Source: an uncultured bacterium (lineage in GTDB: Bacteria; Acidobacteriota; HRBIN11; JAKEFK01). From it: a stretch of 64,000 nt of DNA. The stretch is from NCBI GenBank assembly GCA_963843285.1, contig CAWJJO010000004.1:5521-69520 (forward strand). The letters are read 5' to 3'. The stretch's first letter is position 1. The number at the start of each line of letters is the position of its first letter. The notes under the pieces are model-generated. The model was given only the letters and a program-made list of their open reading frames with translations. It was not told the DNA's origin and searched no databases. The translations under genes and the position numbers were made by a program. Positions 5,269 to 44,694 of this stretch are shown here, piece after piece.

Positions 5269-5270
5269 AT

Positions 5271-11284: not shown

Positions 11285-11698
11285 AACGTGAAGATCCTCT
11301 GGTTTTGTAGGTTCTGCTGCACGATCATGGATGGCCACGAAGCGTAGCGGTGTGTTTTGTCGGACGCGCAGAATCCTGTCCTCGGCACGTTATTTAGAAT
11401 CGGTCGGAGAGGAGCAATTTTAGAAGGTTGCGGCAACTGGGTTCAGATCATGGCCCGAGGACGATGTTAACCCACGGGGAATCCTTCAATTGGTCCAATC
11501 TCTACCCCTGTTCCTAAGCTATATTCTTCTTTCTTCGTATGCACGGAAAAATCGAAGATTGTGGGGCTACTCTGTACTTCGATCACTGCGGGTTTTGCGG
11601 AAAGTGCACCGAGAAGTTAGGACAGGCTTAAAAGGTGTAGCGAATCGAATCGGAAAATAGCGTGGCACGCCTGGCCAATCAGCGAGAAACGCGTCCGT

Positions 11699-11958
11699 TT
11701 AAGATCGGATCCAGAGTTTTTCGTATACGACACTGGGAAGAAAGAAGCGCATTTCCAATCCTTCTACTTCGGCGCGCGCGAACAAATAACGTTGCTCATG
11801 AAAGAGAGGAAGCGCCAACGCCTTGTTCCTGAGGATCTCTTCGATTTCGCGATAAATGGCCTGGCGGACTTTGCGGTCCTGTTCTGCGCGACGTCGTTCA
11901 ATCAGCCGGTCCAATTCAGGCAAGCTGCAAAAAGCAGCGGCAAAAACGTTCCTTTCTC
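11699..11958 (-). pseudogene. 3'-terminal fragment (74 codons) of a paralog of the giant kinase gene 18619..25050
   Basis: ~230 nt near-identical to 18619..18850, followed by ~25 nt matching 20195..20220. Encodes ...[34 protein letters not shown]. Confidence 0.6.
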
Positions 11959-13376: not shown

Positions 13377-13412
13377 GAAGGGGGATGGGGAGATATGGGG
13401 GATGTGGGGATG
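13371..13412 (+). repeat. G-rich palindromic-repeat family, single arm; its TAA is the predicted P450 stop
   Basis: GTGTAAGAAGGGGGATGGGGAGATATGGGGGATGTGGGGATGG. Confidence 0.8.
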
Positions 13413-13775: not shown

Positions 13776-15041
13776 TCATGATCCGAAGGGATGATCAATC
13801 GATGGACTCTGCACAGTAAACATCCGCGGGCCGTCTTCTGTGATGTACATACAATCTTCCAGGCGAATTCCGAATTCTCCATAAATAACGATCGTTGGCT
13901 CATCGCTGAAACACATTCCGGGTGCAAGGCGTGTTTGGTTTCCGCGAACGAGATAAGCCCATTCGTGGCCATCCAATCCGATCCCATGACCGGTTCGATG
14001 TGGAAGTCCCGGGACTTTGTAATCGGGTCCAAATCCGGCATCCGTGATCACCTTGCGCGCAGCAGCGTCTATCGACTCGCAGGTCGCGCCGACTTTCGCA
14101 GCCGCAAACGCTGCATCCTGCGCTTTGCGCTCTAGATTCCAGATGTCTCGCTGCCGCGCAGAAGGTTTGCCGAACACAAACGTTCGTGTGACATCCGAAC
14201 CGTATTTTTCCACATCACAGCCCCCGTCCATCAAGACAACGTCTCCTTCCTTCAGTTTTTGCGGCTGAATACTACCATGCGGAAAGGCCGTGTACTTTCC
14301 AAAGCTTGTAAAGGCTTCCCCTTCAACGCCCAGCGCACCAAATGCAGCAGAAATATTTGCGGAAAATTCGTCCGTGGTGATCCCCTCTTTTAATGTGTCT
14401 ACGGAGGCCTTATACGCGGCAATCGTGATGTCATTTGCACGCTGCATCAAAGCCAGTTCTGCAGCGGATTTGATCATCCGGCATCCGGCAGTCACAGGAT
14501 CAGCGCTTACGAAGGTCAACTGCGGAGCCTCCTTTCGAATGCCGTCAAAAAGGAAAAAGCGTACTCGTTCCTCCATACCAATCGTACCGGTTAGAATCCC
14601 GCGATCCTGAAAGATCCCGGCAATCTTTTTGTACGGACTTTCATCCTCTTGCCAGGTGCGAATGTCGGAACCAAAACGGATCAGCTCGCGCGCGCGCTGT
14701 TCTTCGAATGCAGGACAAACCCATGCAATCTCTCCGCGCGCCGGAAGAACGGCAGCGAACATCCGCTCAGATCCATGCCATTGCACTCCCGTAAAGTAAA
14801 ACAAACTGGTACCCGCTTCGAGATAAATCGCATCGATTTTGTTTTCTATCATTCGCTTGCGAGCCTTTTCCATTCGTTCCAATCGCTCTTGATCTGTGAT
14901 CGGTTTGACTCCGCCGGTCATAGGCTTCAAGTTTGCGAATGCGCCACCCGGGGTATCGGCGCGTGAAAAGCGGGGACTGGCCATGGCACCGGCGGCGAAT
15001 GCGGACAGTTTTAGAAAATTTCGTCGATCCACACAGATCAT
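13776..15041 (-). CDS. M24-family Xaa-Pro aminopeptidase/dipeptidase with Tat signal
   Basis: RRNFLKLSAFAAGAMA twin-arginine signal. HGIGLDGHE and other pita-bread metal-ligand motifs. Confidence 0.8.
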   Translation of the reverse strand: MICVDRRNFLKLSAFAAGAMASPRFSRADTPGGAFANLKPMTGGVKPITDQERLERMEKARKRMIENKIDAIYLEAGTSLFYFTGVQWHGSERMFAAVLPARGEIAWVCPAFEEQRARELIRFGSDIRTWQEDESPYKKIAGIFQDRGILTGTIGMEERVRFFLFDGIRKEAPQLTFVSADPVTAGCRMIKSAAELALMQRANDITIAAYKASVDTLKEGITTDEFSANISAAFGALGVEGEAFTSFGKYTAFPHGSIQPQKLKEGDVVLMDGGCDVEKYGSDVTRTFVFGKPSARQRDIWNLERKAQDAAFAAAKVGATCESIDAAARKVITDAGFGPDYKVPGLPHRTGHGIGLDGHEWAYLVRGNQTRLAPGMCFSDEPTIVIYGEFGIRLEDCMYITEDGPRMFTVQSPSIDHPFGS

Positions 15042-15778: not shown

Positions 15779-15830
15779 CGCAGTTCAGACATCAAAACTG
15801 AGCCCTGTGGTCTGCAATGAGATTAAAGGA

Positions 15831-15877
15831 GTGTAAGAAGGGGGATGTGGAGATCGGGGGGATGAGGGGATAAGGAT
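15831..15877 (+). repeat. G-rich palindromic-repeat family, single arm
   Basis: GTGTAAGAAGGGGGATGTGGAGATCGGGGGGATGAGGGGATAAGG. Confidence 0.85.
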
Positions 15878-16592: not shown

Positions 16593-16656
16593 CTTTGATC
16601 CTCCATGATTATTCTAGCCCTTCTGCTTCCATCCTGCTACGGCGGGGATCTGAGGA

Positions 16657-16705
16657 GTGTAAGAAGGGGGATGTGGAGATCGGGGGGATGAGGGGATATC
16701 GGATC
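16657..16705 (+). repeat. G-rich palindromic-repeat family, single arm
   Basis: GTGTAAGAAGGGGGATGTGGAGATCGGGGGGATGAGGGGATATCGG. Confidence 0.85.
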
Positions 16706-18341: not shown

Positions 18342-18524
18342 CTTTGAGGAAACTTTTGCAATCGAATATGGAAGGCCCGATGAAACGGGTATTCCCGATG
18401 CGTATGGAATATATGCAACGAGAAACGAACGTCAAGTTTTGGCTGTTCTGCCTGTCGTTTCGTCGCGAACTTGCGGCCGGTAGATGAATGCGGCATACTG
18501 AACGCCGGCATTCTGCCGGGAAGA

Positions 18525-18570
18525 GTGTAAGAAGGGGGATGTGGAGATCGGGGATAAGGGACAGGATTTT
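18525..18570 (+). repeat. G-rich palindromic-repeat family, single arm
   Basis: GTGTAAGAAGGGGGATGTGGAGATCGGGGATAAGGGACAGG. Confidence 0.85.
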
Positions 18571-18618
18571 TGTTTCACTTATAATCCCGTAACTTTGGAC
18601 ATTCAGGCAGTTTGTTGT

Positions 18619-21600
18619 TTAAGATCGGATCCAGAGTTTTTCGTAAACGACACTGGGAAGGGAGAAGCGCATTTCCAATCCTTCTACTTCCGCACGCGCG
18701 AACAAATAACGCTGCTCATGAAAAAGAGGAAGCGCCAACGCCTTGTTCCTGAGGATCTCTTCGATTTCGCGATAAATGGCCTGGCGGACTTTGCGGTCCT
18801 GTTCTGCGCGACCTCGTTCAATCAGCCGGTCCAATTCAGGCGAGCTGCAAAAAGCATCCAACATTCCGTCACCTGTCTCAAAGATCTCTGCAAAAGTAGA
18901 AGGATCCGGATAATCAGCATGCCACCGCACAAGAGCCAAATCCGCATTTCCTGTTTTGAGAAAGTCGGCAGACGCTTTATTCTCCAGTACTTTGATCCGA
19001 ATTCCTTTTTCGTTCAGCATGGCGATCAAATCTTGCAGCAGAGCCGAATACGTACTTTCGTAAATGGGATGGATCATGCAGGTCAGTTCCAGATCCCCTT
19101 TTCCTTTCACACTGGAGGGTAATCCTGTCCTGCGTGTAGGCTCATATCCAAGTAAGCCCGGCGGGGTCAAGCTGTAAGCCGCGATTCCCAAACGGCCTAC
19201 ACTCTGACGCACCAACCGGGTTACGTCCACCGATTCCAGAATTTGCCGTCGCAAAGCTGGATCGGTCATCGCTCCGGAATGAGAGTTCATCACCAGAAAA
19301 TAGGTGGAAAGAGTAGGCATTTCCGCGTAATGAGCGGCAAGAGTCGGATCACGGCGTAAGGTTGCAACATCTGATGGAAGCAAGTCAGTAGCCACTGAAA
19401 AGTCTCCGCTGCGGAACCCGCTCAAGATTTCTTGTGGCGGCACGCCAAAAGTGAATCTGAGCCCATCACTTTTGGGCAGTCCGGTACGCCAATAATCAGG
19501 ATTCGCTTCCAGTTCCAGCAGTTTTTCCGGCTCATACCGGATGAGGCGGAAAGGTCCCGTCCCGATACACCCATCTCGCCAGCTTCCCGAAAACAGAGTG
19601 CTCCCTTCCGGTATGACGGAGCAACAGGGATGGGTCAACATTGCCGGCAACAGCGAAAGAGGGCGGGTGAGGTCGATTACGAATTCCGTGGCGGAAATGA
19701 TCTTGAATCCAGGAAGGTCGTTGGATTCACCTTTGATCATCGAAGTGGCTCCACGAATTGCAGACAAATATCCGCGACGCGGAGATCCGCTTTTGCGCAG
19801 GAGTTGTTCAAAGGAGTAACGAACGTCGCGCGAAGTCAGGCGCCGTCCATCTTGAAAACGTACGTTTTCGCGCAACTTGAAGTGGAATCTTTTTCCTCCT
19901 TCCCCGGAAGAAAACTCAGATGCGAGCCACGGAATGATTCCCCCTTGCTTTTCGACGGTCAACGTTTCGAAAATCATGGGAGTCACTTCCCCCTCTACGA
20001 TCAGAAAATTCATCGAAGGGTCTATACTTTGTGGTCGCGTGGTTTGAGGGACTCGCACAAGCCCTCCTTCCCGTTTTTTGCCCGGAACCAAACCTTCTTC
20101 TTCGATTCTTCCGATTTCCGCGTACCGGACAAATGGCGCGCTGCTTTGAATCGCGAGTCCTCTGAGGTTGTGAGCCGCCACACGGTAATCGATTTCATAA
20201 AAGAGCGGCAAAAACGTTCCTTTCTCCATCAGCAGCTCTTCCATCTGTCGATACAACTTTTCTCTTTTCTCAGGGCGACTTTCCACGCGCGCCTGTTCCA
20301 TGAGCTCATCGATTTGATCGCTGGAGAAATATTTCCGAAAATTGCCGGCCTTGGAATAAAAAAGAGGATAAATGAAATTGTCCGGATCATCATAATCGGC
20401 GATCCAACGCGTGAGCAACACATCGATATTTTCATTGTTGTCCCAGGCCTCGCGATACGAGCTCATATCCGGCGTCACGATCGAAGTTTCAACACCCAGC
20501 TCTTCCCAGGTTTTCAACAACGCTCTGATCAAAGCGCCGTAGCGGTCCTGGAGAATCGGATGGACGGCAGCTCTTAACCGGATCGGTAAGGATAGACCGG
20601 TTGTTTGCAATCGTTCGCGAGCCTGATCGATGGAAATGCTGATATGTCTTCGGCCCGGATCGTGACCGAGCAGTCCGGGTGGCAGCAAACCCTCAGCAGG
20701 CTGCGCAAAGCGCCCCAGTGTGCGCCACACCAGATCATGCGTTTGAAGCACTCCGCATAATGCTTCGCGCAATGCAGCTACTTTTCCAAAGGGTCCGGAT
20801 GAGTTGAACACAAGAAAACAGGTGCTCTTTTTCGGAACTTCTACAAATCCAGCTTGAATCAACGGATCGCGAAGGATTTCATCCAGATTTTCCGGCAACA
20901 GATCGCGGACAACATCGAATTCACCTTTCTTGAAACCTTCCGCCATCTTCTTTGTGCTGATGGAAGTTCGAAACTCGACAGTATCCAGGAAAGGCGCGCG
21001 TCCTTTCCAGTAATGTTCGTTTTTCTGCAAAATGATTTTACCGGGTTCCACCGAATCGATCCGGAATGGACCTGTGCCCACCAGGTTTCCATGGGTGTCA
21101 TCGCAGGTGATCGCTGCCCGCGCATCCGTTAGCAGCGAGGGATAAATCAACAGCGGCTCCTCCAGTTGCACGGAGAACGAAGTGTCCGACTGCACCTGGA
21201 TTCCGGTGACCTCATTTTGGGAACCAGCGAGGAATTCCCGGACTCCCACGATGGAACCGAATGCTGCCGCCATATTTTCCCCGCTGACGCGGATCGCTTT
21301 TTCAAATGAGGATTTCACATCTTTCGCAGTGAGCGTGCGGCCATCGTGAAGAGATAATCCCTGTCTGAGAGTAAACACAAATAGTTTTCCATCTTCACGA
21401 GCTTCCCAGTTGTCGCACAAAAACGGGACCGGATGCCCGCGTTCATCTGTGCTCACCAGAGTTTCAAAGATCGTGGCATGAACTTCTGCTTCTTCCACAA
21501 GCGAAATGTTGGCAGGATGCAACGCGGAAATGGGAGCAGGAAGAGCCACAACAATCTTGCCCCCCTGCGCAATTTTTCCTTCTTTCTTCGGCTGCGGCGC

Positions 21601-24600
21601 GAGGACTTCCAATTCATGCAAATACTGCTTCGCCTTTTCGTACTCGCCCCGTAGATTTGCAACCGTGCTTCCGAGCGAAAGCAATCTGTGCAGACCGCCG
21701 GTTTCACCGCTGGACTTCGCAACCTGGATTCCTTTGTCCACCCATTTCCCGGTTTCCTCGAATTTCCTGCTCTCCCAGGAAGTTTCTGAGAGTTGAACGA
21801 GCGCATTCGCGAGATGCGCTTGATGTTTCTCCGTTTCAAACAGGGAAACCGCCTGTTCTAATTCCCGTAATGAATCCTCCAGATTTCCGGCCATCCGGTA
21901 TGCCTCTGCCAGAAGCATTCTGGCTTCCCCCTCTCTGGAACGATCCATCCCTTCTTCTTCATCGCCGAAGAAATCGAGAACGGTTTTTGTTGTGCGTATG
22001 GCATCTTCCGTGCTGAAAGCATGGAGAGATTTTCGCGCAAATTTTAAACCGTAGTCGATCACTTTTTCAGGAACGTCGGCATTCGAATAGTGATGAATCA
22101 ATTCCGGGTACACCCGCTCCAGCCGCCCCTGGTTCCGGCGCTCCAGCTCTTCAGCGTATTTGCGATGAAGGGACCGGCGTTTGCGGCGTGAAAGCTCCGC
22201 GTAGAGCACATCGCGAATCACGCCGCTGGAAAACATCAGACGGTCGCCGCGCGACTCCCGTTCTTCTTGCAACAAACCGTCACGGAGTAACTGATCGAGC
22301 GCATCTTCTACGTCCTTGCCTTCGGCAAGCAGCTCCAGATCCCTGAAATCAAAACTTTTCCCGATCACCGATGCGAGGGAAAGGACATCCTTCCGGTCCT
22401 GAGGCAGCCGCTTGATCCGTTTTTCGATCACTTGCTGGATTGTTTCCGGCAAAGCTCCTGAAGAAAAAGCGGCATCACTCGAAATGGTCCAGGCTCCCGT
22501 GTCATCCTTCGCGACCCCGCCCGAATCGATCAACGATCGAACAAGTTCCTGCGTAAAGTATGGATTTCCCTCCGTCGCTTCAAACAATCGTTCGGCGAAC
22601 CGGTCATCCAGAGTGGTTCCTGTCAGGATGGTTTCGAGAAACAGTCGATGTTCGGCAGTGGAAAAAGGTTGCAGATGCATCAGTAAAAATCGCCTGTCGC
22701 TGCGAAAGCTATCCAGAAGCTGGTGCAGCAGATGCCTCTTATCCACTTCGCCGCTGCGATACGTTCCTACCACCAGAGTCGGCGTTGTGCTGAGCCGGCG
22801 CACCAGATATTCCAACGCATCAATCGAAATGTCTACGTTATGCAGATCTTCAAAGAAAATGACCAGCGGCTTTGCGCCTCCGATCCGGATAAAAGAACGG
22901 GCGAGCAGATCAAAGATATAAGTGCGGTCTTCAATCTTTTTTGTTTCTGCTCCGGGCGTAATCTTTCGATCCGAAGTTAACTCGATCTCTGCGAGAACGG
23001 GAAACAGAGAGACGAGATCAGAAGCAAGGTCGGAGAAATCCACCGGACCGGAAGAAGAGGTTGCCTTTAAGTGAAAATATTCCTGGATGACTTCACAAAA
23101 CCCCTGATAGGGGAAGGCCCGGTCCTGTTCTGCGAAACGACCGTGAAGAACACGGATGTGGCGCGCGCGCGCGAGCCGTTCCAGCTCATCCAGCAATCTG
23201 CTCTTGCCGATTCCTGCTTCACCGCCGACCACCACAAACTGGCATTCACCGGCTGCTGCCAGGTTCAACCGGTTTTGTAAATCGGTGAATTCTTTTTCTC
23301 GATCCACAAAAGGAGATTGCACGGCCTTTTGAATATGACTGGACAACCTGCCGATCATGGACAGCTTTTGCGCGCGTTCGCTGTCGCGCAGCTTCGAACG
23401 AAGCTTCATCAAAGATTCCGTTAATTCCCGCGCGCGCTGCGGACGTTTGGTCCGGTCCTTTTCCAGACAGCTCATCACAATGCGTTCCAGCTCCTCCGGC
23501 ACATCGGCGCCAAGCAAACGAGGAGCCGACGGAATTTCGTGAGCGATGCGGTACAGGACCGACTGAATTTCTCCTGCGAAAGGCGCTTCTCCCACCAGAC
23601 ACTCATACAGCACCGTTCCCAGAGAATAAATATCGGAACGTCCATCCAGGTCTCCCTGCGATAATTGCTCAGGACTGAGATAGGCGACGGTGCCCACTAA
23701 CATCCCTGTTTTGGTGAGATGGCTTTGAGTCGAGGACATGGCAAGACCGAAGTCGGTCACACGCACACGCGCTCCACCCGTAGCCGTTTCTCCCACCGAT
23801 ACGAGAATATTTTCCGGCTTGATGTCGCGATGTACGACCCCTTTCGTGTGGCTGTATTCGAGAGCATCCGATACCTGAATACCGATGTCGATGACATCTC
23901 CTAAACTCAGAGAGCGGTCGCGCAGCAAAGCTCGAAGACTCGATCCCGGAACGTACGGCATGACAAAGAACAGAGCTCCGGCGTGTTCGCCGATATCGTA
24001 TACGTTCACGATTGCCGGATGATCCATCTTCGCAACCACGCGCGCCTCTCGCTTGAAGCGTTCCACCGCGTCGGTGGAAAGAGCATCCGGAGTGATCACT
24101 TTGACAGCCACTTCGCGATCCAGCATCGGATCCCGGGCGAGGTAAACCACACCCATTCCGCCACGGCCCAGCTCGCGAATAATCTGATACCGGTTGGCAA
24201 AGCGAAGCGCCCTCAGCGCATTGGCCAGCTCCATAGCGGAGGAGTAGCGCTGGTTCCTGTCCTTGACCATGGCGCGGCGAAGGATCGGATCCAGTCCCTG
24301 CGGCATCAGAGCGGAAACGGAGCTCGGAAGCGGAGGATCGGTTGTGGCAATTTCATGCAAGATCGAAAGAACACTGGGACCGCTGAAAGGAACTTTTCCG
24401 GTGGCTGCTTCATAGAGAACGGCTCCCAAGGAGAAAATATCGGTGCGGAAATCGAGCGGTTCGCCTCGCGTTTGCTCCGGGGACATGTACGCCACGGTTC
24501 CTACAATCATTCCTGTTTTCGTGAGTTTACTGACGGTTTGCTCACCGCTTACCTTTTCATCCTCAACCTGGACCACCTTCGCAAGGCCGAAATCGAGTAT

Positions 24601-25050
24601 TTTGGCCTGCCCGTTGGGTGTTACTAATATGTTCGAAGGTTTGATGTCCCGGTGGATCAGACCCGCTGAATGCGCCGCTGCAAGACCATCTGCAATCTGC
24701 GATCCAAGATCCAGAAGCTGCGACAATTCCAGGGGACCTCGCTGCAACAAGGATCTTAACGTTTCCCCTTCCACATATTCCATGACGATGAAATCCGCGC
24801 CATCAACCTCTTCGATGTTATAGATCGTAACGATGTTCGGATGATTCAGAGCGGATGCAGACCGCGCTTCCTGCAACAGACGCCGCTTCGCTGTGGCATC
24901 CTGTGAAGCGGAGGAGGGCAAGAACTTGACCGCCACCTGGCGTCCAAGCTTGAGGTCCTGGGCTTTAAAGACTTCACCCATTCCCCCCTGCCCGATTTTT
25001 TCAAGAATGCGGTAATGAAGTATTTTCTGTTCGGGACCGGATGAATTCAC
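18619..25050 (-). CDS. giant multidomain signalling protein: two tandem Ser/Thr kinase domains, AAA/STAND NTPase, TPR, two SBP_bac_5 (OppA/DppA-like) solute-binding domains
   Basis: 2143 aa. Kinase 1: [31 protein letters not shown]. Kinase 2: [27 protein letters not shown]. Walker [13 protein letters not shown]. Two C-terminal modules with the family-5 SBP pattern (GTGPFR...KNEHYW). No TM segment evident. Confidence 0.85.
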
Positions 25051-25115
25051 GATGACTCCGTGGAACTTCGGGCTAAATCAGCAAAAGTAAAAGTATACCA
25101 GAGTGGGTGTAACAA
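23451..25115. repeat. segmental duplication copy A (~1.67 kb, near-identical to 32406..34078)
   Basis: Identity starts at CCGGTCCTTTTCCAGACAGCTCATCACAATGCG and ends inside the G-rich repeat arm after GTGTAACAAGGGGGA. Confidence 0.85.
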
Positions 25116-25167
25116 GGGGGATGGGGGGGATGGAGGAGATAAGGGGATGGGGTTTTATTTATTGAAT

Positions 25168-26493
25168 CAGTGCTGTCCGGTTAAATGTCGAATAGTTGCA
25201 ATTGTTTACAGTTTAGATCCTGTTGAATCGTATAGTTTGGTTGTGAAAGTGCTTGGAAAATGGGCATTTTTTCGAAAAGGCTGAGACTCAAAATCTGTAG
25301 AATTGTGTAAAGGCTTTGATCCAGTTGGAGTTGTTTCTTTATCACCGACACCAGAACATAAACCGAGATGGAAATCCAAATTTGAGTCTTCACAGCGTTT
25401 GGTGAGGTTCCATAAAATGCTTTGATTCGCAAATGCTGTTTGATCCATTTGAAGAAAAGTTCGATCTGCCAACGGCATTTGTACAGCTGGCCGATGACCA
25501 CGGCAGGCAGATGGAAATTGTTGGTTAAGAATGTAAATCGCTTGTTTGTTTCGGTATCGTAGTATCGAATGCGGCGTAGTTTGTCGGGGTAATCTAGTTT
25601 GGTTTTGATGCCATTTAGCAAGATAGTTTGATCGCATCGAAGTCCTGTGGATCGCTCCACAGGATAGGAGTATAGACGATGGTAGTCGAAGTTGCTTTTG
25701 GCTCTCGTGATGAAGAAGGCCATGGTTTGATCGATCTTGTAGAGTCGAGCAAAATCGACGTAACCGCGATCCATGATGTAGATGGCAGCGGGCTCGAATG
25801 TCAGTTGGTCCAGGATGTTGATATCGTGCACTTTTCCTGTCGTGACAATAACCGTCGTCGGAAGATTGCCGCGCAAATCCAGCAGCGTGTGAAGTTTTAT
25901 CGCGCCTTTGTGCTTGCGAAACCTCGCCCACGGAAACAACTCCAGACAAAGATCGATTGTAGTGGAGTCCAAAGCGTAGACTGTCTGATCCAAATCCAAA
26001 GCGAAAGGCCCGTCTGCGTACAGTTGTCGAGCAATGCCAATGAGCACCTGCGCAAAATCGGCGTAAATCTGCCAAGATCGCTTCTCGTTGGCATCGGCCA
26101 GTGTGCTGCGGGAGATCTTGCCGCGAATGCCAGCATGATAAAGTTTGGATTCCATTACCCGCAGACACGTCTCGATATCCCGCAGACTCTCGCGATATGT
26201 AAGTTGCGCAAAGGCCATGCAAAGAAACTGATCCAAACAAGAGAAACTCCGCGTACGATGATTCCCTTGATAGCGTTCGACACATTGATTGAATTCCAAG
26301 CGGGAAGCGAGTCCATCAATTGAGAGAAAACCGTTCGTCCTTCGTTCATAGACCACCTCTTTCCGTAACAAAGCGCGGAAAGTATGGCAGAAAGGATCAA
26401 CTAATTTGAAATCGAAAACGACTATTTTGTACTCTAAGATATTCATTTAGTATAAGTTATGGGCAACTTCAAAATTTTAACCGGACAGCACTG
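25168..26493 (-). mobile_element. IS4-family insertion sequence, 1326 bp, intact
   Basis: 18-bp perfect terminal inverted repeats CAGTGCTGTCCGGTTAAA. 9-bp direct target duplication TTATTGAAT (25159-25167 and 26494-26502). Single DDE transposase ORF. Confidence 0.85.
25181..26446 (-). CDS. IS4-family DDE transposase
   Basis: 421 aa filling the IS between its IRs; sequence is IS4-like. Confidence 0.8.
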   Translation of the reverse strand: MNILEYKIVVFDFKLVDPFCHTFRALLRKEVVYERRTNGFLSIDGLASRLEFNQCVERYQGNHRTRSFSCLDQFLCMAFAQLTYRESLRDIETCLRVMESKLYHAGIRGKISRSTLADANEKRSWQIYADFAQVLIGIARQLYADGPFALDLDQTVYALDSTTIDLCLELFPWARFRKHKGAIKLHTLLDLRGNLPTTVIVTTGKVHDINILDQLTFEPAAIYIMDRGYVDFARLYKIDQTMAFFITRAKSNFDYHRLYSYPVERSTGLRCDQTILLNGIKTKLDYPDKLRRIRYYDTETNKRFTFLTNNFHLPAVVIGQLYKCRWQIELFFKWIKQHLRIKAFYGTSPNAVKTQIWISISVYVLVSVIKKQLQLDQSLYTILQILSLSLFEKMPIFQALSQPNYTIQQDLNCKQLQLFDI

Positions 26494-26608: not shown

Positions 26609-27754
26609 CTAAAGCCAACCGCCACTAAATCCCGCCCGCCGCAGTCCGGTGACGACTGCCGGGCAACGGCGCATGATGTTCCAGAGCAGGCCGGTCCGGT
26701 AGTTCTCGATCATCAGCACGACCGGTCCTTGATCGATGCCGAAGTGATACGGCGTGACCCACCAACCGGTCGGGCTATCCGGCACGGCAAACGATTGATT
26801 GAACGACGGCTTGAACCCATATTTCCCCGTCATTCCCAGGTCCATTCGCGCAAAGTGCCGCACGGTCGGGATGACGATTTCAGGAGCAAACGGCAGCGAG
26901 GCGACGACGACCCACGGGGCGACAGTGCCGTCGTCTGGACCGAATGGGGCGCCGCGAGCGATATAGTCGAAGAACTCGCGTTCGACGCCGTTGACCACCC
27001 GCTTCGCCCAACCGGGTCCGTCGCATGCCGTGAATCCCCAACAGTGTTCGCCGTAGCCGACGAAATTCATGGGATTGCGGATCGCGTATTCCTGCTGCAC
27101 AAACGTCGCCTGCCGGCTGTTCTCGAAGTAGTCGCTGCCGTGCGTCCGCATGAATTCGTCGCGAATGCCGCGAAAGTCGATCCACATATGCGAGAGCTGA
27201 TGCGTGAAGAGCGGCCCCGAGTAAAGCAATTCACGATCGTAGATGTTCTTCCACTGGTAGGTCGCGCAATAGGCGCGATAACTCTCGGGCGGCAACGGAT
27301 GCGTTGGCGAGCCGAGTCCGAGGATGTAGAGCAGCAAGCCTTCGTCGTAACCTTGCCAGCGGTGTGGGATGAACCCGTTCTCCGGCCGCCAGCCATGCGT
27401 GAGCGTCGGTCCGCCATCACAGGCCCAATTCCAGTCGGCCCGACGGTAAAGCGCATCGGCCAAGCTTCTGATCTCGACCTCGTCGGGCGTGTCGCGGTCG
27501 AAATAGGTGGCGACCGTCAAGGCACCCGCGAACAGAAATGCCGAGTCGATGGTGGAAAGCTCGCACTGCCAGACGCGGCGACCCGTTTCGATGTCCAGGA
27601 AATGGTAGAAGAAGCCTTTGTAACCGGAGGCGTCCGGCTCGGGACCCTGCGGGCATTCGAGCAGGTATCGCAGTCGTTTCCGGGTGATCTTGGCGGCGAA
27701 ATCTCGGAAGAGGACGCCGCGCTCGACGACGACCGGAATCGTCGCCAGCGCCAT
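26609..27754 (-). CDS. hypothetical Trp/Tyr-rich protein in high-GC block, possibly glycoside-hydrolase-associated (DUF3131/glucoamylase-like?)
   Basis: 381-aa intact ORF immediately downstream of the GH94 pseudogene. Family call weak. Confidence 0.4.
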   Translation of the reverse strand: MALATIPVVVERGVLFRDFAAKITRKRLRYLLECPQGPEPDASGYKGFFYHFLDIETGRRVWQCELSTIDSAFLFAGALTVATYFDRDTPDEVEIRSLADALYRRADWNWACDGGPTLTHGWRPENGFIPHRWQGYDEGLLLYILGLGSPTHPLPPESYRAYCATYQWKNIYDRELLYSGPLFTHQLSHMWIDFRGIRDEFMRTHGSDYFENSRQATFVQQEYAIRNPMNFVGYGEHCWGFTACDGPGWAKRVVNGVEREFFDYIARGAPFGPDDGTVAPWVVVASLPFAPEIVIPTVRHFARMDLGMTGKYGFKPSFNQSFAVPDSPTGWWVTPYHFGIDQGPVVLMIENYRTGLLWNIMRRCPAVVTGLRRAGFSGGWL

Positions 27755-27930
27755 GCCGACGGCGGCGATGCTGACCGGAGCGTTCGGGTCGGTCTTGTCG
27801 CGGACCAGCCCATTGTCCGGATTGGTTTCGTGCAGATAGTACAGAACCGTGGAGAACTGCAGCAGACCCAGATCTTGTCGGTGAGCAGTCGATCAAGATC
27901 GTTGTCGGCACCGGGAGTGTCGGCCATGAG

Positions 27931-30900
27931 TCAGTTGCTCTCGGTCAGCCCAATTGCACGCGGACGTTGTGAGTCTTCCCGTCGTCGCTGAGCGGCACTG
28001 CGTCGTTCGGCAATCGTTGCCCGTCCAAGCTCGACCGATCGGACGCCGCGACCCGTGCCAGCCGAGTTGTCCACCAGAATCCGGTATGTCGCGGACCGAT
28101 GGCGATAGGTCAGTTCAAATCCCGGCCAGCTCGGCGGGATGCATGGCTCGAAACGAAGAGTGCCGCCCCGCAATTGGAAGCCCAGAATCGTTTCAATCGC
28201 GACGCGGTAGAGCCAACTCGCCGAGCCGGTGTACCACGTCCAGCCGCCGCGGCCCGTGTGCGGCGGGGCGCCATACACGTCGGCGCACACCACATACGGC
28301 TCAACTTTGTAATGCTGCACCTCCTCAGCCGTCGTGGCATGGTAGACCGGGTTGATGAGGTTCCAAAGTTCCATGGCGCGGTCGCCGCGACCCTGCAACG
28401 CCGTCGCCAGGGCAACCCAAGTGGCGGCGTGGGTGTATTGACCGCCGTTCTCGCGGATGCCCGGCACATATCCTTTGATGTAGCCGGGCTGAAGGGTGCC
28501 TTTGTCGAACGGCGGGTCGAACAGTTGGATCAGTTTGTCGCCGATACGCACCAGTCGTTTTTGAACCGCGTCCATTGCCGATTGAGCCCGCTGCCGGGTT
28601 TGCTACCCCGGAAATGACCGCCCACGCTTGTGGGATGGCGTCGATCTGGCACTCATCGTTTTGAGCTGATCCCAGGGGAGTGCCGTCGTCGAAATATGCC
28701 CGGCGGTACCACGCGCCGTCCCAGGCGTTCGCCTCCAGAGCAACCCGCAACTGCTCGGCTCGCTCCCGGCACCAATTGGCATCGTCGGCCTGGCTGCGCC
28801 GCTCAGCCAATTCTGCAAACGCGTTCAACACGCTGACGAAGAACCACCCGTTCCAAACGCTCTCGCCCTTTCCGTGGGCGCCCACCTTATTCATGCCGTC
28901 GTTCCAATCGCCAGTGCCCATGAGGGGCAATCCGTGGGGACCCAGTCGATAGCCGTGCTTCAGCGCGCGAACGCAGTGCTCGTAAACGGTGCCAGTCTGC
29001 TCACTCACTGCGGGCAAGTTGAAGTCTTCCTCCTGGTCTTCGCGAAGTACCGGCGACGTGATGAACGGCACGACTTCATCTAACAAGCTCCGTGTCGCCT
29101 GTTGTCACAACATAGTGGTGAACGACGAGCGGCAGGAAATAGAGGTCGTCGGTGATCCGCGTGCGAACGCCGATCCCGGACGGCGGGTGCCACCAGTGCT
29201 GGACATCGCCCTCCTCGAATTGCCGTGCCGCCGATCGCAAGATCTGCGCCCGCGCCTCTGCCGGAGCGCTGTAGACCAGGGCCATCACATCCTGCAGTTG
29301 GTCTCGAAAGCCGTACGCTCCGCCGGATTGGTAAAACGCGGAGCGAGCCCAAACGCGGCAAGCCAGGACCTGATAAACAAGCCAACGGTTGAGCATCAGG
29401 TCGATGCCCGGATCGGGCGTAGTCACGTGCAACGCGTTCAGGTAGCGGTCCCATTGCTGTTGCACCTGCGTCAGTGCCGCATCGGCTCGATCGGATTGTG
29501 TGTATTCGTCAATGAGTCGATGAACCTCCTCCAAACTGTCCGCCTGACCCAAGGCAAAAACCACTTCTCTCGTCTCACCAGGAGCCAGCGTCAGTTCCGT
29601 CGTCATTGCCGCGCAGGGATCGAGGGCATGGGCCGGCGCGGCCGGACAGCCCGACGCGCCTCAGAGCGGCGGGCATTGAAATCGAGCCGTGTTCCCCGAG
29701 AAATTCCGTACGATCGGCGGTGACCGACTGCGTCGGCGAACCACAGGCCGCGAAGGCGATCTTCTCGGCGAAGTTCGCCGGCCCAGGCATTCCGCGCCAA
29801 TATCGCGCTCGCTCTCCGGATCGCGCTCACAGACGACTTGCAGCGGAGCGTTTTCACGGACGGTTCCAAGAACCCATTCGGCGTAGTACGTCGCCGACAA
29901 GCGCCGGGGCCGATCGCCGTCATTTCGCACCGTCAGGCACACCAACTTAATCGGATCGTCGGTCGGGACGAAAACCAAAAGGTCCTGATTGAGATTGCGG
30001 CTGACATGCGTGTAGCGAGTGTAGCCCTGGCCGTGGCGGACGGTCACCGTTGCCGCTAGGTCCCAGCGGCAAGGGCGTGGGTGTCCAGAAGTCACCGGTT
30101 TCCTCGTCGCGCAAATAGATCACTTCGCTTGGCGGGTCCGAAGTCGGATCATTCGACCAGGGAGTGAGGCGGTTCATTTGACTATTGCCCGCCCAACTGT
30201 AGCCCAGACCAGCCTCTGTCACTAAACATCCGAACTGCGGATTGGCCAGCACATTCGTCCAGGGGGCCGGCGGCAACGCTGGTCCCGACTGTGACGTGCC
30301 GTCGATGACGATCACGTACTCGCGGCCATCACGGGTGAAACCTCCGAAGCCGTTCCAGAAACTCAATCCTTCAGGCGGTCGGGCGGGCTGCGCGACAGGC
30401 TTTGTCGCCGATCGCAGCCGGAGTGAGTTGCGGCGGCGGATCGGGCGGTGGGGCAGCGCGATGATCGATCTGCTCGGTCAGCGAGCCCGCGACCACCGCC
30501 GAGTACAGCCCGCGCGGCGGCCGCGAGCAGGACCGCATCATCGGCCGGCACCTTGTCCGCGGTCAAAAAGAACACACCGCCTGGCTTGCCGAGCATCTCG
30601 CCGGCAACTCCCGTCTGTAGTTCCTTTCGTAACCGATCGGCAGGTTCGCCGGCGCGCTCGTCCAGAATCACGAGATCCAATTTCAATCCCCGACGGCGTG
30701 TATAGGTGCGCCACTGAACAAGTTGGCGAACGACCGTCTCATCGTCGTCCTGAGCGACTCGGACCAGCACAATTGGCAGGTCACCGGAAATGGAGTGCGG
30801 CCACAGGCTCGCCTGCCCCAGCCGGTTGGCAGCCACGGCATCAAGGTCGCGAAGACCGGAGTTCGTGAAAATGACGGCCGCCGCCAATCGGTTGAACAGG

Positions 30901-31800: not shown

Positions 31801-31978
31801 CATTTCTCGTCCTTTCGACATCAGAATCCTGTTGATACTACTTACTATTGACAAAAGTATGAACTGAGTGGCAAGCAAGCAAGCCCATAGGCGTCTTGCC
31901 GAATTACGAGGACCTGCGATGGCTTCAAATAAGGTGGGAAGATAGGGTTGCAACGCGGAGAACGCGGAGAGCACTGAG

Positions 31979-32022
31979 GTGTAAGAATGGAGATGGGGAG
32001 ATGAGGGTGGATGGGTACGCGC
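31979..32022 (+). repeat. G-rich palindromic-repeat family, single degenerate arm
   Basis: GTGTAAGAATGGAGATGGGGAGATGAGGGTGGATGGG, preceded by tandem AACGCGGAG AACGCGGAG. Confidence 0.7.
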
Positions 32023-32024
32023 TA

Positions 32025-32330
32025 TTATTCGTCCCAGGCTGCGACGCACCAGATCTGGATTGGCGTAGTGCCCCACTGCAGCATACGGTTCCCTGGACTT
32101 CCGACAATAGGGCATTCAGTATCGCCTTCTTGATCGATCACTACGATCCCTTTTGGCTTTCCTGTGGCCGGGTCAACCGGCATGTGGTGTGAGAACGTCG
32201 GGGAGTGACCGAAGCTTTGAAGACTGCCGGCGCCCGTAAACTGCCGGTTCTTCAAGACGTCGAAGTCCGCATTCAGTACCCAGAATTGCAGCAGAGATCC
32301 GGGCTGAAGTGTCGTAATCATCAAATTCAC
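32025..32330 (-). CDS. 101-aa hypothetical ORF translationally coupled to tandem-kinase ORF
   Basis: Its ATG overlaps the kinase TGA (ATGA). No recognisable motif. Confidence 0.3.
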
Positions 32331-34003
32331 GATCCGATCTCTCCAGCCGCTTTTCGCTGGACCCTGTCAAACAGGCTGGTGAAAGCGACAATGCGTTCTT
32401 CGCTCCGGTCCTTTTCCAGACAGCTCATCACAATGCGTTCCAGCTCCTCCGGCACATCGGCGCCAAGCAAACGAGGAGCCGACGGAATTTCGTGAGCGAT
32501 GCGGTACAGGACCGACTGAATTTCTCCTGCGAAAGGCGCTTCTCCCACCAGACACTCATACAGCACCGTTCCCAGAGAATAAATATCGGAACGTCCATCC
32601 AGGTCTCCCTGCGATAATTGCTCCGGACTGAGATAGGCGACTGTGCCCACTAACATCCCTGTTTTGGTGAGATGGCTTTGAGTCGAGGACATGGCAAGAC
32701 CGAAGTCGGTCACACGCACACGCGCTCCACCCGTAGCCGTTTCTCCCACCGATACGAGAATATTTTCCGGCTTGATGTCGCGATGTACGACCCCTTTCGT
32801 GTGGCTGTATTCCAGAGCATCCGATACCTGAATACCGATGTCGATGACATCTCCCAAACTCAGAGAGCGGTCGCGCAGCAAAGCTCGAAGACTCGATCCC
32901 GGAACGTACGGCATGACAAAGAACAGAGCTCCGGCGTGTTCGCCGATATCGTATACGTTCACGATTGCCGGATGATCCATCTTCGCAACCACGCGCGCCT
33001 CTCGCTTGAAGCGTTCCACCGCGTCGGTGGAAAGAGCGTCCGGAGTGATCACTTTGACAGCCACTTCGCGATCCAGCATCGGATCCCGAGCGAGGTAAAC
33101 CACACCCATTCCGCCACGGCCCAGCTCGCGAATAATCTGATACCGGTTGGCAAAGCGTAGCGCCCTCAGCGCATTGGCCAGCTCCATAGCGGAGGAGTAG
33201 CGCTGATTCCTGTCCTTGACCATGGCGCGGCGAAGGATCGGATCCAGCCCCTGCGGCATCAGAGCGGAAACGGAGCTCGGAAGCGGAGGATCGGCTGTGG
33301 CAATTTCATGCAAGATCGAAAGAACACTGGGACCGCTGAAAGGAACTTTTCCGGTGGCTGCTTCATATAGAACGGCTCCCAAGGAGAAAATATCGGTGCG
33401 GAAATCGAGTGGTTCGCCGCGCGTTTGCTCCGGCGACATGTACGCCACGGTTCCTACAATCATTCCTGTTTTCGTGAGCTTACTGACGGTTTGCTCACCG
33501 CTTACCTTTTCATCCTCAACCTGGACCACCTTCGCCAGGCCGAAATCGAGTATTTTGGCCTGCCCGTTGGGTGTTACTAATATGTTCGAAGGTTTGATGT
33601 CCCGGTGGATCAGACCCGCGGAATGCGCTGCCGCAAGACCATCGGCAATCTGCGATCCAAGATCCAGAAGCTGCGATAATTCCAGGGGACCTCGCTGTAG
33701 CAAGGATCTTAACGTTTCCCCTTCCACATATTCCATGACGATGAAATCCGCGCCATCAACCTCTTCGATGTTATAGATCGTAACGATGTTCGGATGATTT
33801 AAAGCGGATGCAGACCGCGCTTCCTGCAACAGACGCCGCTTCGCTGTGGCATCCTGGGAAGCGGAAGAGGGCAAGAACTTGACGGCCACCTGGCGTCCAA
33901 GCTTGAGGTCCTGGGCTTTAAAGACTTCACCCATTCCCCCCTGCCCGATTTTTTCAAGAATGCGGTAATGAAGTATTTTCTGTTCGGGACCGGATGAATT
34001 CAC
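32327..34003 (-). CDS. stand-alone tandem Ser/Thr kinase (two kinase domains); truncated duplicate of the N-terminus of 18619..25050
   Basis: 558 aa. The first ~533 aa are near-identical to the giant protein (e.g. IATADPPLP vs IATTDPPLP), then a unique 25-aa tail [25 protein letters not shown]. Confidence 0.8.
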
Positions 34004-34078
34004 GATAACTCCGTGGAACTTCGGGCTAAATCAGCAAAAGTAAAAGTATACCAGAGTGGGTGTAACAAGGGGGATAGG
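32406..34078. repeat. segmental duplication copy B (near-identical to 23451..25115)
   Basis: See copy A. Confidence 0.85.
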
Positions 34079-34106
34079 GAGATAATGGGGATGTGGGGAT
34101 AGCGGA
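34069..34106 (+). repeat. G-rich palindromic-repeat family, single arm
   Basis: GTGTAACAAGGGGGATAGGGAGATAATGGGGATGTGGGGATAGCGG, immediately before the ATG at 34107. Confidence 0.8.
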
Positions 34107-35828: not shown

Positions 35829-35870
35829 AAGGGGGATGTGGGGATGAGGGGATATTGGGATAGGTAAGGG
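35823..35870 (+). repeat. G-rich palindromic-repeat family, single arm (GTGTAGAAG variant supplies the TAG stop)
   Basis: GTGTAGAAGGGGGATGTGGGGATGAGGGGATATTGGGATAGGTAAGGGG. Confidence 0.8.
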
Positions 35871-44688: not shown

Positions 44689-44694
44689 GCCCTG

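Follow-up and report, generated by a model that had tools for sequence, protein, structure and literature searches.

The stretch of DNA analysed here (64,000 nucleotides from an uncultured bacterium, referred to as the window) encodes a protein of 2143 amino acids in which protein kinases, a STAND switch, TPR-like repeats and two family-5 solute-binding (SBP5) modules follow one another in a single chain. SBP_bac_5 domains are normally extracytoplasmic and family-5 SBPs are described as transport receptors. The protein is soluble and cytoplasmic and its host is a soil acidobacterium. By analogy with known STAND regulators, the family to which it belongs most likely senses a small intracellular molecule and responds by phosphorylating other proteins.

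Gene and domain structure

The gene is real and is part of a large family. Its reading frame starts with GTG, with a GGAG 8 nt 5' of the start, and the chance of an open frame of 2143 codons was estimated by us at about e^-100. Homologues of 2140-2154 aa span 100% of the protein, so that both the start and the end of the gene are taken as correct; an identity look-up found no record of the exact protein in public collections. The domain order proposed in an earlier note on this DNA was recovered by Pfam as Pkinase twice, AAA_16, a weak TPR and SBP_bac_5 twice. In full it reads kinase 1, kinase 2, NOD (P-loop, helical and winged-helix parts), TPR and two family-5 SBP modules (Table 1), and all catalytic and nucleotide-binding motifs are undamaged.

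Table 1. Features of the gene and of the surrounding locus, in window coordinates.
Feature	Position	Strand	Basis
Whole gene, 2143 codons and stop (stop codon 18619-18621)	18619..25050	(-)	ORF and same-length full-length homologues
Kinase 1, Hanks-type RD kinase (aa 13-281)	24208..25014	(-)	Pfam; motifs in homologues
Kinase 2 (aa 288-545), common to whole family	23416..24189	(-)	Pfam; 32-sequence alignment
STAND nucleotide-binding domain, AAA_16 (aa 581-761)	22768..23310	(-)	Pfam; AF2; Foldseek
NOD helical domain, winged helix and arm (about aa 762-954)	22189..22767	(-)	AF2 secondary structure; STAND matches
TPR-like helical repeats (about aa 955-1150)	21601..22188	(-)	Weak Pfam/NCBIfam; AF2; Foldseek
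SBP5 module 1 (about aa 1161-1650), complete OppA/MppA/DppA type	20101..21570	(-)	Pfam; PDB sequence; AF2; Foldseek
SBP5 module 2 (about aa 1661-2143)	18622..20070	(-)	Pfam; PDB sequence; AF2; Foldseek; OppA alignment
Duplicated 76-nt upstream region with RBS (GGAG)	25051..25126	(-)	Repeat boundary
TGGTATACT, putative extended -10-like motif	25092-25100	(-)	Read from sequence
IS4-family insertion sequence	25168..26493	(-)	DDE_Tnp_1 and DUF4372; inverted repeats; flanks
Second copy: promoter region and codons 1-533	32404..34079	(-)	98.2% DNA identity
Relic of last 78 codons (aa 2066-2143)	11697..11936	(-)	96% identical

The same note had seen no evident membrane segment, and the hydropathy analysis agrees with it: the 19-residue Kyte-Doolittle mean peaks at 1.44 in this protein and at no more than 1.71 in 56 homologues, its maxima correspond to buried strands (Walker B and the first SBP strand, for instance), and no membrane segment was detected in any of these sequences. 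The conventional receptor-kinase layout with periplasmic SBPs was thus not seen. Such a receptor, or a fusion produced by assembly or annotation, might be suggested by the usual extracytoplasmic place of SBP_bac_5 and by the repeats of the locus, which could mislead an assembler; however, a hydrophobic segment is absent throughout and the same architecture, with the same length and uninterrupted, occurs on hundreds of independent contigs (NCBI, JGI, ENA, Logan). Hydropathy and independent contigs together refute this scarcely conceivable explanation for practical purposes. Since the two SBP_bac_5 modules proved genuine and complete, and a TM segment is absent, the two objections foreseen in the earlier note fall away.

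Pfam Pkinase matches twice (at about aa 13-281 and 288-542; 343 bits over the two stretches), and both domains contain the Hanks hallmarks, i.e. the Gly-rich loop, VAIK Lys, alpha-C Glu, HRD with Asn, DFG and APE/SPE. These are G20-x-G22-x-x-G25, K42, E61, H133-R-D135, N140, D153-F-G, T177/T179 and S190-P-E in kinase 1, and G295-x-G297-x-x-G300, K317, E335, H407-R-D409, N414, D433-F-G, T446/T448 and S459-P-E in kinase 2. The motifs are also conserved among homologues, and the claim that both kinases are apparently active stands at the level of sequence, every catalytic motif having been kept. The 631 bits scored by the PknB/Stk1 PASTA model NF033483 came from the two kinase stretches and profile positions 9-267 of 563 only; assignment as a PASTA kinase was rejected, the protein having neither a TM segment nor PASTA in Pfam.

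In the 32-sequence alignment the invariant columns start at R287. Kinase 1 is restricted to a tandem-kinase subclade, in which its motifs are undamaged in 14 of 15 members, and it is degenerate in the P0043 lineage. It resembles the kinases of separate STPK genes (44-50%) more than it does kinase 2 (40-44%). Judged from these comparisons, the proteins with tandem kinases are a paralogous subclade to which kinase 1 was added as an independent bacterial acquisition. The tandem kinase of the earlier note is therefore present in this protein as a trait of the subclade only, the single-kinase form being commoner. The plant tandem kinase proteins to which it had been likened (WTK1/Yr15, Rpg1, Sr62) also carry two kinases per polypeptide, and the comparison is one of analogy only, with no sign of common descent.

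The nucleotide-binding domain was identified by Pfam AAA_16 (69.6 bits against a cutoff of 32.6), with Walker A at G610EAGIGKS and Walker B at FFED (E734); G610, G613, G615, K616 and E734 are invariant in the homologue alignment. A PDB sequence search with the STAND region returned only a marginal TPR match and a fold search was therefore needed. The AF2 model (pLDDT 82) showed helices followed by strands at model residues 340-381, on which the helical domain and winged helix were assigned, and paired helices with pLDDT > 90 at model residues 396-591, the TPR-like part. The best Foldseek match of the NOD-winged helix-TPR model was the MalT-like STAND PH0952 (6mfv, E 6e-14), the next being Apaf-1, CED-4 and MalT 8bob (2e-7), and EfAvs5 SIR2-STAND was also among the structural matches; LGN and Rap TPR structures matched the TPR-like part. 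Pfam TPR_MalT/TPR_12 was weak at 1043-1151, as were the NCBIfam MalT (20.9 bits) and AfsR TPR matches. The PknK/AfsR-like logic assumed earlier is supported by the fold matches to 6mfv, Apaf-1, CED-4 and MalT and by TIGR03903 ("TOMM system kinase/cyclase fusion"), the best HMM match for the kinase-NOD part (1.4e-46, aa 560-1160).

The protein shares the kinase-NOD part of TIGR03903 and has no cyclase domain. Membership was rejected because the score lies below the cut-off (455.8 against 705.75 bits), Guanylate_cyc is absent in Pfam and no TOMM genes are found nearby. A peptide-modifying enzyme, in which the SBP5 modules would hold a precursor peptide for the kinases in the manner of the LanL/LanKC-type and TOMM-associated kinases of RiPP systems, would be in keeping with the partial NCBIfam matches to TIGR03903 and to class III/IV lanthionine synthetase kinase domains. 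These matches lie far under the curated cut-offs and concern generic kinase and NOD parts only, and precursor, lyase, cyclase and transporter genes are not conserved near the homologues; the proposal, highly improbable on these grounds, was rejected.

The SBP_bac_5 assignment was confirmed by three methods, each giving two full-length modules. Pfam matched twice (349 bits in all, covering positions 2-366 of the 368 in the profile), and PDB sequence matches spanned residues 16-478 in the slice for module 1 and 8-479 in that for module 2, with E-values of 1e-32 to 1e-36 (MppA 1.6e-32; OppA and DppA match too). In the AF2 model of the region (pLDDT 86.9) the three-lobe fold is entire and both modules are in the open form, and Foldseek gave TM values of 0.70-0.90 to family-5 SBPs (0.90 for 5u4o, 0.86 for YliB, 0.82 for open MppA). 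The placement of the two modules relative to each other, and of TPR relative to SBP, is of low confidence in the models (pTM 0.52). The structure prediction proposed for finding ligand pockets thus yielded the open-cleft fold, the pocket itself being compared with OppA by sequence only.

In that alignment D2046 of module 2 corresponds to OppA Asp419, which is said, from the work of Tame et al., to anchor the peptide alpha-amino group, and W2043 corresponds to OppA Trp416. D1552 of module 1 is the counterpart of D2046 in the same motif; D1552 and D2046 are invariant among 32 and 56 homologues, and W2043 is invariant among homologues as well. OppA Arg413, which together with His371 serves the peptide C-terminus, and OppA Trp397 have no conserved equivalents. 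By analogy with OppA the ligand is probably a peptide or another amino-group-bearing compound; it may be other than a peptide, since the modules retain no more of the OppA pocket than the anchor Asp and a single Trp. The modules, internal or C-terminal in the chain, have no export signal and no hydrophobic segment, and no ABC permease or ATPase genes adjoin the gene here or at homologous loci. The region has the family-5 fold and is not a transport SBP.

The loss of most OppA pocket residues, the large surfaces offered by two tandem modules and TPR, and models that are confident for each domain and not for the mutual arrangement could also speak for modules that bind no small ligand and act as a scaffold for protein interaction or oligomerisation, or else dock segments of kinase substrates that are unfolded or terminal, the STAND switch being governed by TPR-bound partners, nucleotide state or the like. 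We regard this as decidedly unlikely: both modules keep the three-lobe fold and the open cleft of unliganded SBPs, neither the anchor Asp nor the motif around it varies in either of them across the family, and the existence of variants with one SBP5 module implies that the pair is dispensable as a scaffold.

Family variants and genomic context

The architecture had been called unusual, which holds against the literature only: no work on Pkinase/AAA_16/SBP_bac_5 proteins or on an SBP-type STAND sensor was found in open-access and bioRxiv text, whereas a survey across the Acidobacteria, as had been suggested, showed that it is not rare. The chassis is common to at least about 290 clusters at 90% identity and was located in 389 genomic stretches of species-representative genomes. 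The best 80 of these 389 are from MAGs and are labelled Acidobacteriota almost without exception, the few other labels being taken to be mis-binning. The family is large and previously unstudied. Its commonest form has one kinase and about 1880 aa, mean pairwise identity is 0.53-0.73 with strong conservation in each domain, and paralogues and tandem copies are frequent.

The same STAND-TPR-SBP5 chassis, bearing one or two SBP5 modules, is found with different N-terminal domains. An OmpR-type winged helix (Trans_reg_C) is present in P0126, P0207, P0219 and P0220, a double XRE HTH (2x HTH_3) in P0172, and no N-terminal domain in P0123 and P0379. P0126 is 48% identical to P0002, which in turn is 69% identical to the present protein. 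A rare form combines SIR2_2, kinase, AAA_16 and 2x SBP5 (three clusters at 90% identity: P0152, P0271 and P0272), and P0252, a second 50%-identity representative, is a further SIR2-kinase variant.

Conserved neighbours were sought by BLASTP clustering of the ORFs from 79 homologous loci. Apart from other Ser/Thr kinases, which were met in 15 loci, nothing recurred in more than 4; the window's own neighbours had no counterparts there save one P450 match, no phosphatase or FHA partner was conserved beside the gene, and no defence gene recurred. In the closest relative, the locus L002 (85% DNA identity), homology stops at the gene borders and synteny is absent. The contexts are variable and often of a housekeeping kind, such as a trp operon with che genes or ppk1 with bio genes; the neighbourhood of the SIR2 variant is also plain housekeeping. 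TA modules lie near some homologues.

The window itself is rearranged around the gene. The IS4-family element lies 118 nt upstream of the start codon; its inverted repeats are perfect over 18 nt, and its target site is duplicated over 9 bp (TTATTGAAT). The second copy of the 5' part yields a 558-aa kinase-only ORF at 32327-34003 and differs from the gene by 27 synonymous changes and 1 non-synonymous change. The 5' copy (first 1.6 kb) and the 3' relic, and hence the rearranged locus, are absent from the earlier note. Scans for a consensus promoter upstream and for a terminator downstream of the gene gave nothing. A restriction/DrmD-like island lies about 9 kb from the IS-bearing locus, with type III R-M, a DrmD-like helicase and an AIPR/AbiU-like gene 9-18 kb away. 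Peptidases are abundant across the window, and a tRNA scan of it was empty, so that there is no tRNA-linked island.

These data bear on the Avs-like defence role to which the earlier note had likened the protein. As an anti-phage or conflict receptor of the Avs/NLR type, it would recognise through its SBP5 modules an infection-derived molecule, e.g. a phage peptide, a protein terminus or muropeptides from wall damage; the STAND part would oligomerise, and the kinases, as effectors, would bring the cell or the phage to a halt, like stand-alone defence kinases, a SIR2 NADase being the effector in the rare relatives. The layout of N-terminal effector, STAND and C-terminal sensor, the SIR2-bearing relatives and the EfAvs5 structural match are shared with Avs and bacterial NLR-like STANDs. 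The gene is cassette-like in that its homology to the 85%-identical relative ends at its borders, and the occurrence of paralogues, of tandem copies and of fragments of the gene is a sign of birth-and-death turnover. The restriction genes 9-18 kb off, the TA modules of some homologues and the degenerate kinase 1 of P0043, reminiscent of plant kinase-pseudokinase receptors, point the same way.

However, PADLOC matches (PD-T4-6, mad6, MkoA) were limited to two stretches on the kinase domains, generic PknB-type models score as high, and NCBIfam MAD6 and PglW (BREX) remained below their cut-offs. No Avs model matched the protein, PADLOC models missing its NOD and sensor, and membership in PADLOC anti-phage systems was rejected, since the matches were kinase-only and partner genes of known systems are absent. 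There is no recurrent defence neighbour in the 79 loci, and several contexts are housekeeping, that of the SIR2 variant included. The same chassis carries DNA-binding outputs in sister proteins, the family is very widespread with well conserved sensor domains, SBP5 clefts fit small ligands and not folded phage proteins, and the family is absent from the STAND immune census searched. A defence function thus has little support and appears unlikely; it keeps some weight in view of the turnover of paralogues, the rearrangement of the locus and the SIR2 variants, rare as these are. A quite unlikely extension would make the family a bacterial counterpart of NOD1/NOD2-type receptors, with MppA/OppA-like modules detecting cytosolic muropeptides or foreign peptides upon phage attack or wall damage, and kinases or SIR2 NADases as effectors; the tandem-kinase subclade, with one lineage whose kinase 1 has decayed, would then parallel plant tandem-kinase immune receptors.

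Relation to known regulators and proposed mechanism

The reading we prefer, which is a little more probable than its contrary, is that of a MalT/PknK-type ligand-gated switch whose sensor would be the cytoplasmic SBP5 modules and not TPR alone. In its favour, the DNA-binding outputs of some sister proteins are those of regulators that sense a ligand, MalT and AfsR among them. The output of MalT is a LuxR-type DNA-binding domain, whereas that of the present protein is a kinase, and sequence similarity between them is marginal. The NOD-winged helix-arm-TPR fold is common to MalT of E. coli, PH0952 of P. horikoshii and this protein. MalT and PH0952 sense by TPR; here a short TPR (about 190 aa) precedes SBP5 modules of about 1000 aa in all, the likely sensor. 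With PknK of Mycobacterium tuberculosis and its relatives the protein shares the N-terminal Hanks kinase, the MalT-type NOD, TPR and a soluble cytoplasmic nature; compared by domain layout, it differs in the second kinase and the two C-terminal SBP5 modules, neither of which is present in PknK to our knowledge, and is therefore a PknK-like variant and not a plain member.

In AfsR/SARP STANDs (Trans_reg_C, AAA_16 and TPR) the winged helix stands where the present protein has its kinases, and BTAD is absent from the latter; the sisters with Trans_reg_C join it and AAA_16 to an SBP5 sensor, and we know of no SBP5 sensor in AfsR. Compared with the cluster-C proteins OppA, MppA and DppA, the modules have the whole fold, the family signature region and the Asp419 equivalent, and they differ in having no signal peptide or lipobox and in their tandem fusion to a cytoplasmic STAND kinase. 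In BvgS-type sensors two tandem SBP-fold (Venus-flytrap) modules likewise control a kinase, which is an analogy only; the BvgS modules are of family 3, are periplasmic and drive a histidine kinase.

The STAND scheme has been published, with PknK cited as a STAND kinase and the sensors described as repeat domains, namely TPR, LRR, WD40 and ankyrin (PMC4381067). Inducer-dependent NOD opening and multimerisation are presumed to be common to MalT, PH0952 and this protein, and from the STAND family we infer that multimerisation would depend on both inducer and ATP (PMC4381067, PMC6468293). At rest the NOD would be closed on ADP and kept shut by the TPR/SBP5 region. A small cytoplasmic ligand, most likely a short peptide or another amino-group-bearing compound, would be bound in one SBP5 cleft or in both, and Venus-flytrap closure would lift the autoinhibition. 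The NOD would then exchange ADP for ATP and multimerise, and the clustered RD-type kinases would cross-phosphorylate their activation-loop threonines (T177/T179 and T446/T448) and subsequently target proteins. Kinase 1, a later addition, would either broaden the output or regulate kinase 2. Paralogues would probably differ in ligand specificity, and the role would be a physiological one, such as the regulation of peptide nutrition in Acidobacteriota that degrade proteins.

Implications for the Acidobacteriota

The current annotation of family members as "ABC transporter substrate-binding protein" is misleading. By analogy, the family appears to place one or two complete OppA-type modules in the cytoplasm as a STAND sensor, and this sensor is coupled to interchangeable outputs, namely kinase, double kinase, winged helix, XRE HTH and SIR2. 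The family would thus offer modular ligand-gated kinases and transcription factors. The Acidobacteriota, a phylum abundant in soil, are poorly understood. Their class Blastocatellia specialises in proteinaceous substrates and lives on them (PMC7077872). If the SBP5 modules bind peptides, they would constitute a direct cytoplasmic peptide-sensing pathway in these bacteria.

Domain anatomy and cellular location

The gene encodes a 2143-residue protein in which, as the Pfam matches and the reading of motifs confirm, two tandem kinases are followed by an AAA_16 STAND portion (NOD) with TPR and by two family-5 binding-protein (SBP5) modules. The catalytic set of kinases 1 and 2 is complete and consists of the Gly loop, Lys42/Lys317, Glu61/Glu335, the HRD residues Asp135/Asp409 and Asn140/Asn414, together with DFG, an activation-loop Thr-x-Thr and SPE; its residues are conserved among the homologues. 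The P-loop GEAGIGKS and the Walker B sequence FFED are invariant. The reading of the protein as a RiPP kinase was judged very improbable.

Features of the 2143-residue protein, its gene and the surrounding window
Feature	Position	Strand or protein	Details
Gene, single open frame	25050 to 18619	minus	2143 codons, GTG start, GGAG 8 nt upstream
Pkinase, two domains	~aa 13-281 and 288-542	2143-aa protein	Pfam
AAA_16	aa 581-761	2143-aa protein	Pfam, 69.6 bits against a cut-off of 32.6
TPR_MalT/TPR_12, weak	aa 1043-1151	2143-aa protein	Pfam
SBP_bac_5, two domains	C-terminal	2143-aa protein	Pfam, 349 bits over the two
Direct repeat, 1676 nt, 98.2%	23451-25126 and 32404-34079	minus	76 nt upstream plus codons 1-533
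558-aa ORF, both kinases only	32327-34003	minus	533 copied codons, then 23 unrelated codons
Relic, 240 nt, 96%	11697-11936	minus	last 78 codons (aa 2066-2143), 6.7 kb downstream of intact gene
IS4-family insertion sequence	25168-26493		DDE_Tnp_1 + DUF4372 transposase, 421 aa
GGGGAT repeat copies	13381-13403, 15827-15872, 16653-16698, 18523-18571, 25127-25149, 34055-34109, 35832-35862, 37957-38010, 44694-44734, 49859-49900, 57479-57516, others
GH94 gene (cellobiose-phosphorylase/cyclic-glucan-type)	26609-32330	minus	at least 8 frame-shifted ORFs
Four-gene defence island	601-9604	plus	SNF2 helicase (DrmD/BrxH-like, 851 aa), AIPR/AbiU-like (608 aa), type III methyltransferase (551 aa), type III restriction enzyme (895 aa)
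Proteolysis genes	13776-15041, 35937-37958, 43459-44688, 45921-49277, 51695-54946, 55957-57471		M24 aminopeptidase, M13, M4 thermolysin-like (1118 aa, PA domain), S8 subtilase (1083 aa), S10 carboxypeptidase, bacterial serpin
Ankyrin-repeat protein with PQQ/BamB-like beta-propeller	40878-43097	minus	739 aa

A Kyte-Doolittle scan of the protein gave no transmembrane candidate (maximum 1.44), and in 56 homologues the maximum was 1.71, the peaks corresponding to the Walker B strand or to the first SBP strand. The earlier note had made its cytoplasmic sensor depend on the SBP_bac_5 assignment and on the absence of a membrane segment, and both points are decided in its favour. The protein is thus cytoplasmic, and a periplasmic receptor, or an artefact, can hardly be entertained.

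In the model of residues 560-1160 (pLDDT 82), a P-loop domain is followed by a helical domain, a winged helix and about five pairs of helices. Its best structural match in Foldseek was PH0952 (6mfv, E 6e-14), a TPR-sensor STAND protein whose crystal structure is available, followed by Apaf-1, CED-4, MalT and an Avs5, and Rap TPR proteins were also retrieved. In the HMM comparison the kinase-NOD portion of TIGR03903 came nearest to this region, the MalT and AfsR TPR matches being marginal.

Both C-terminal modules are, by sequence and fold, complete cluster-C binding proteins. Module 1 was closest in sequence to MppA (1.6e-32), then to OppA and DppA, and module 2 to a Mesorhizobium peptide-binding protein (1e-36), then to OppA. 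The AlphaFold model of residues 1151-2143, obtained from the alignment of 56 homologues (mean pLDDT 86.9), contains two confident modules connected by a disordered 10-residue linker. Only family-5 SBPs were retrieved with this tandem by Foldseek, the pheromone receptor PrgZ being among the matches, and the top TM values belonged to unliganded or open structures (5u4o 0.90, YliB 0.86, open MppA 0.82). In OppA, Asp419 binds the alpha-amino group of the peptide. Alignment to OppA (1b05, mature numbering) placed D2046 at Asp419 and W2043 at Trp416, and Arg413 and Trp397 of OppA are not conserved. D2046 lies in the motif RWxADY(D/P)DP, as does D1552 in module 1, and both are invariant across all the aligned homologues. 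That the modules serve only as a scaffold is improbable.

The family and its exchanged outputs

The architecture, which had been called unusual, proved to be common in the databases. Pkinase, AAA_16 and SBP_bac_5 occurred together in at least 120 clusters (120 of the 120 listed in a whole-protein search, at 90% identity), two further searches yielded about 180 more, and 389 coding stretches emerged when one genome per species was scanned with a pattern. Among these 389, the top 80 all span the whole SBP tandem, and nearly all of them come from Acidobacteriota MAGs (Pyrinomonadaceae, Blastocatellia, Chloracidobacterium, Vicinamibacteria and bins labelled Thermoanaerobaculia); a few bins are labelled otherwise (Clostridia, Nitrospiraceae), which we take to be mis-binning. 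The closest relative among the matches listed, P0001 from MAG swi_bin.31, is 89% identical. The databases label the family proteins only as 'ABC transporter substrate-binding protein' or as 'protein kinase'. The components, the STAND logic and the PknK-type STAND kinases are already known; no description was found in open-access text of a family-5 binding protein as a cytoplasmic STAND sensor, of the tandem SBP5 arrangement on STAND, or of this Acidobacteriota family.

The tandem kinase (2100-2166 residues) is present in about 43 of the first 120 clusters, the others (about 1880 residues) having no kinase 1. Kinase 2 is the family's own kinase, because the invariant alignment columns begin at R287. 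Kinase 1 is 73% conserved within its own clade, where the motifs are kept in 14 of 15 members, and has decayed in the P0043 lineage. It shows 44-50% identity with the kinase domains of separate STPK genes (about 850-940 residues) of the same genomes and 40-44% with kinase 2, and this closer likeness points to fusion, rather than internal duplication, as its probable origin. A separate 742-residue protein with two Pkinase domains is also encoded in acidobacterial loci.

Tandem-kinase and single-kinase paralogues lie about 70 kb apart on one JGI contig, and two family genes adjoin in several loci, which makes the family multi-copy. In several acidobacterial loci two family genes lie in tandem or within 10 kb of each other, which indicates frequent local duplication. 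The loci that show such pairs or the 742-residue double-kinase protein are L085 (1-582), L043, L070, L073 and L003 (25214-25636).

Alternative N-termini on the common NOD-TPR-SBP5 chassis were revealed by an exhaustive HMMER search with residues 560-1700 against 50%-identity representatives. A Trans_reg_C output (OmpR/SARP winged helix) is combined with two SBP5 modules in P0126 and P0207 and with one in P0219 and P0220, two XRE-type HTH_3 domains with two modules in P0172, and SIR2_2 plus kinase with two modules in P0152 and P0252; one kinase and one module form proteins of about 1360-1530 residues (P0143, P0190, P0206), and two modules occur with no N-terminal output in P0123 and P0379 (268-kb contig). 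The winged-helix protein P0126, from a Blastocatellia MAG, is 47-49% identical to kinase forms over 92% of its own length, which establishes that outputs have been exchanged within the family. In P0126, P0207, P0219, P0220 and P0172 an SBP5 sensor presumably makes the protein a ligand-gated transcription factor. The SIR2 variant occurs rarely, in three 90%-identity clusters (P0152, P0271, P0272) and in P0252, a second 50%-identity representative, and its SIR2_2 domain is N-terminal, ahead of the kinase.

The rearranged locus and its neighbours

In gene direction the locus consists of a 5' copy, 7.3 kb, the full gene, 6.7 kb and a 3' relic. Among the 28 differences in the coding part of the direct repeat 27 are synonymous and one is non-synonymous; purifying selection therefore acted while the two copies diverged, and they would most simply be alleles of different lineages later united. 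The 558-residue ORF may encode an expressed tandem kinase that lacks regulation, or it may be a remnant of very recent origin. The 7.3-kb spacer contains the frame-shifted GH94 gene, a glucoamylase and the insertion sequence, and the 6.7-kb spacer a membrane protein, an NTase-like ORF, an M24 peptidase and a P450. The arrangement looks as if a 20.7-kb segment bearing a second, intact copy had split an older copy of the gene; it could conceivably also be an assembly join of two strains.

The insertion sequence ends in perfect inverted repeats of 18 nt and is flanked by a 9-bp target duplication, TTATTGAAT; it lies 118 nt upstream of the gene's start codon, where it interrupts the loop of a GGGGAT/ATCCCC palindromic element. 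A GGGGAT(G)-rich, REP-like intergenic repeat of about 45 nt is dispersed across the window (seven matches to a 23-nt consensus versus 0 expected); two copies are identical at 46/46 positions, and the duplicated gene segments have copies at their borders. The GH94 gene, adjoined by the apparently intact glucoamylase-like ORF, is decaying and possibly of foreign origin, the GC content of its region and of the 7.3-kb spacer being 0.57-0.62 versus about 0.50 in the rest of the window. The combination of ankyrin repeats with a PQQ/BamB-like propeller, also encoded in the window, is uncommon in bacteria.

Clustering of the ORFs of 79 homologous loci gave no conserved neighbour in more than four, except for other Ser/Thr kinases in 15. 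Compared with an 85%-identical relative, DNA homology ends at 25107 and 18618, which are the gene borders. Single loci have a PEP mutase and a PD40 kinase nearby, cytochrome oxidase genes and a free SBP5, or ppk1 and biotin genes; toxin-antitoxin pairs are present near some family members. The one SIR2 locus examined, L084 (10001-16573), has the trp operon on one side and che (chemotaxis) genes on the other and does not belong to a defence island.

An Avs-like immune role of the family is kept alive by the SIR2 variants, the cassette-like mobility of the gene, the turnover of paralogues, the rearrangement of the locus and the presence, 9-18 kb away, of a restriction/DrmD-like island; however, PADLOC matches were confined to the kinases, the neighbouring genes include no recurrent defence gene and the fold of the sensor is suited to small ligands, so that such a role is considered unlikely.

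Proposed mechanism, ligand and role

By analogy with RD kinases and with the STAND logic of MalT/PH0952 (PMC4381067, PMC6468293), the SBP5 cleft would close on the ligand, autoinhibition of the NOD would be lifted, the ATP-bound NODs would multimerise, and the kinases would then trans-phosphorylate and signal. A peptide is the leading guess for the ligand, because the nearest solved relatives bind peptides or muropeptides, the Asp equivalent to the amino-group anchor of OppA is invariant, the window encodes M24, M13, M4, S8 and S10 peptidases and a serpin, and the Blastocatellia have proteinaceous substrates as their speciality (PMC7077872). The dense proteolysis genes of the window fit a protein-degrading lifestyle. 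Sensing of imported signalling peptides in an RRNPP-like manner would fit the same mechanism; Rap TPR proteins and PrgZ are among the structural matches.

A regulatory role of the family is modestly favoured, because some members carry DNA-binding outputs on this chassis, the family is widely distributed and its domains are conserved (identities 0.53-0.73), and the genomic contexts are often housekeeping. No concept is overturned by these data, and what the specialist may find notable in the family is the choice of its sensor and the swapping of its outputs.
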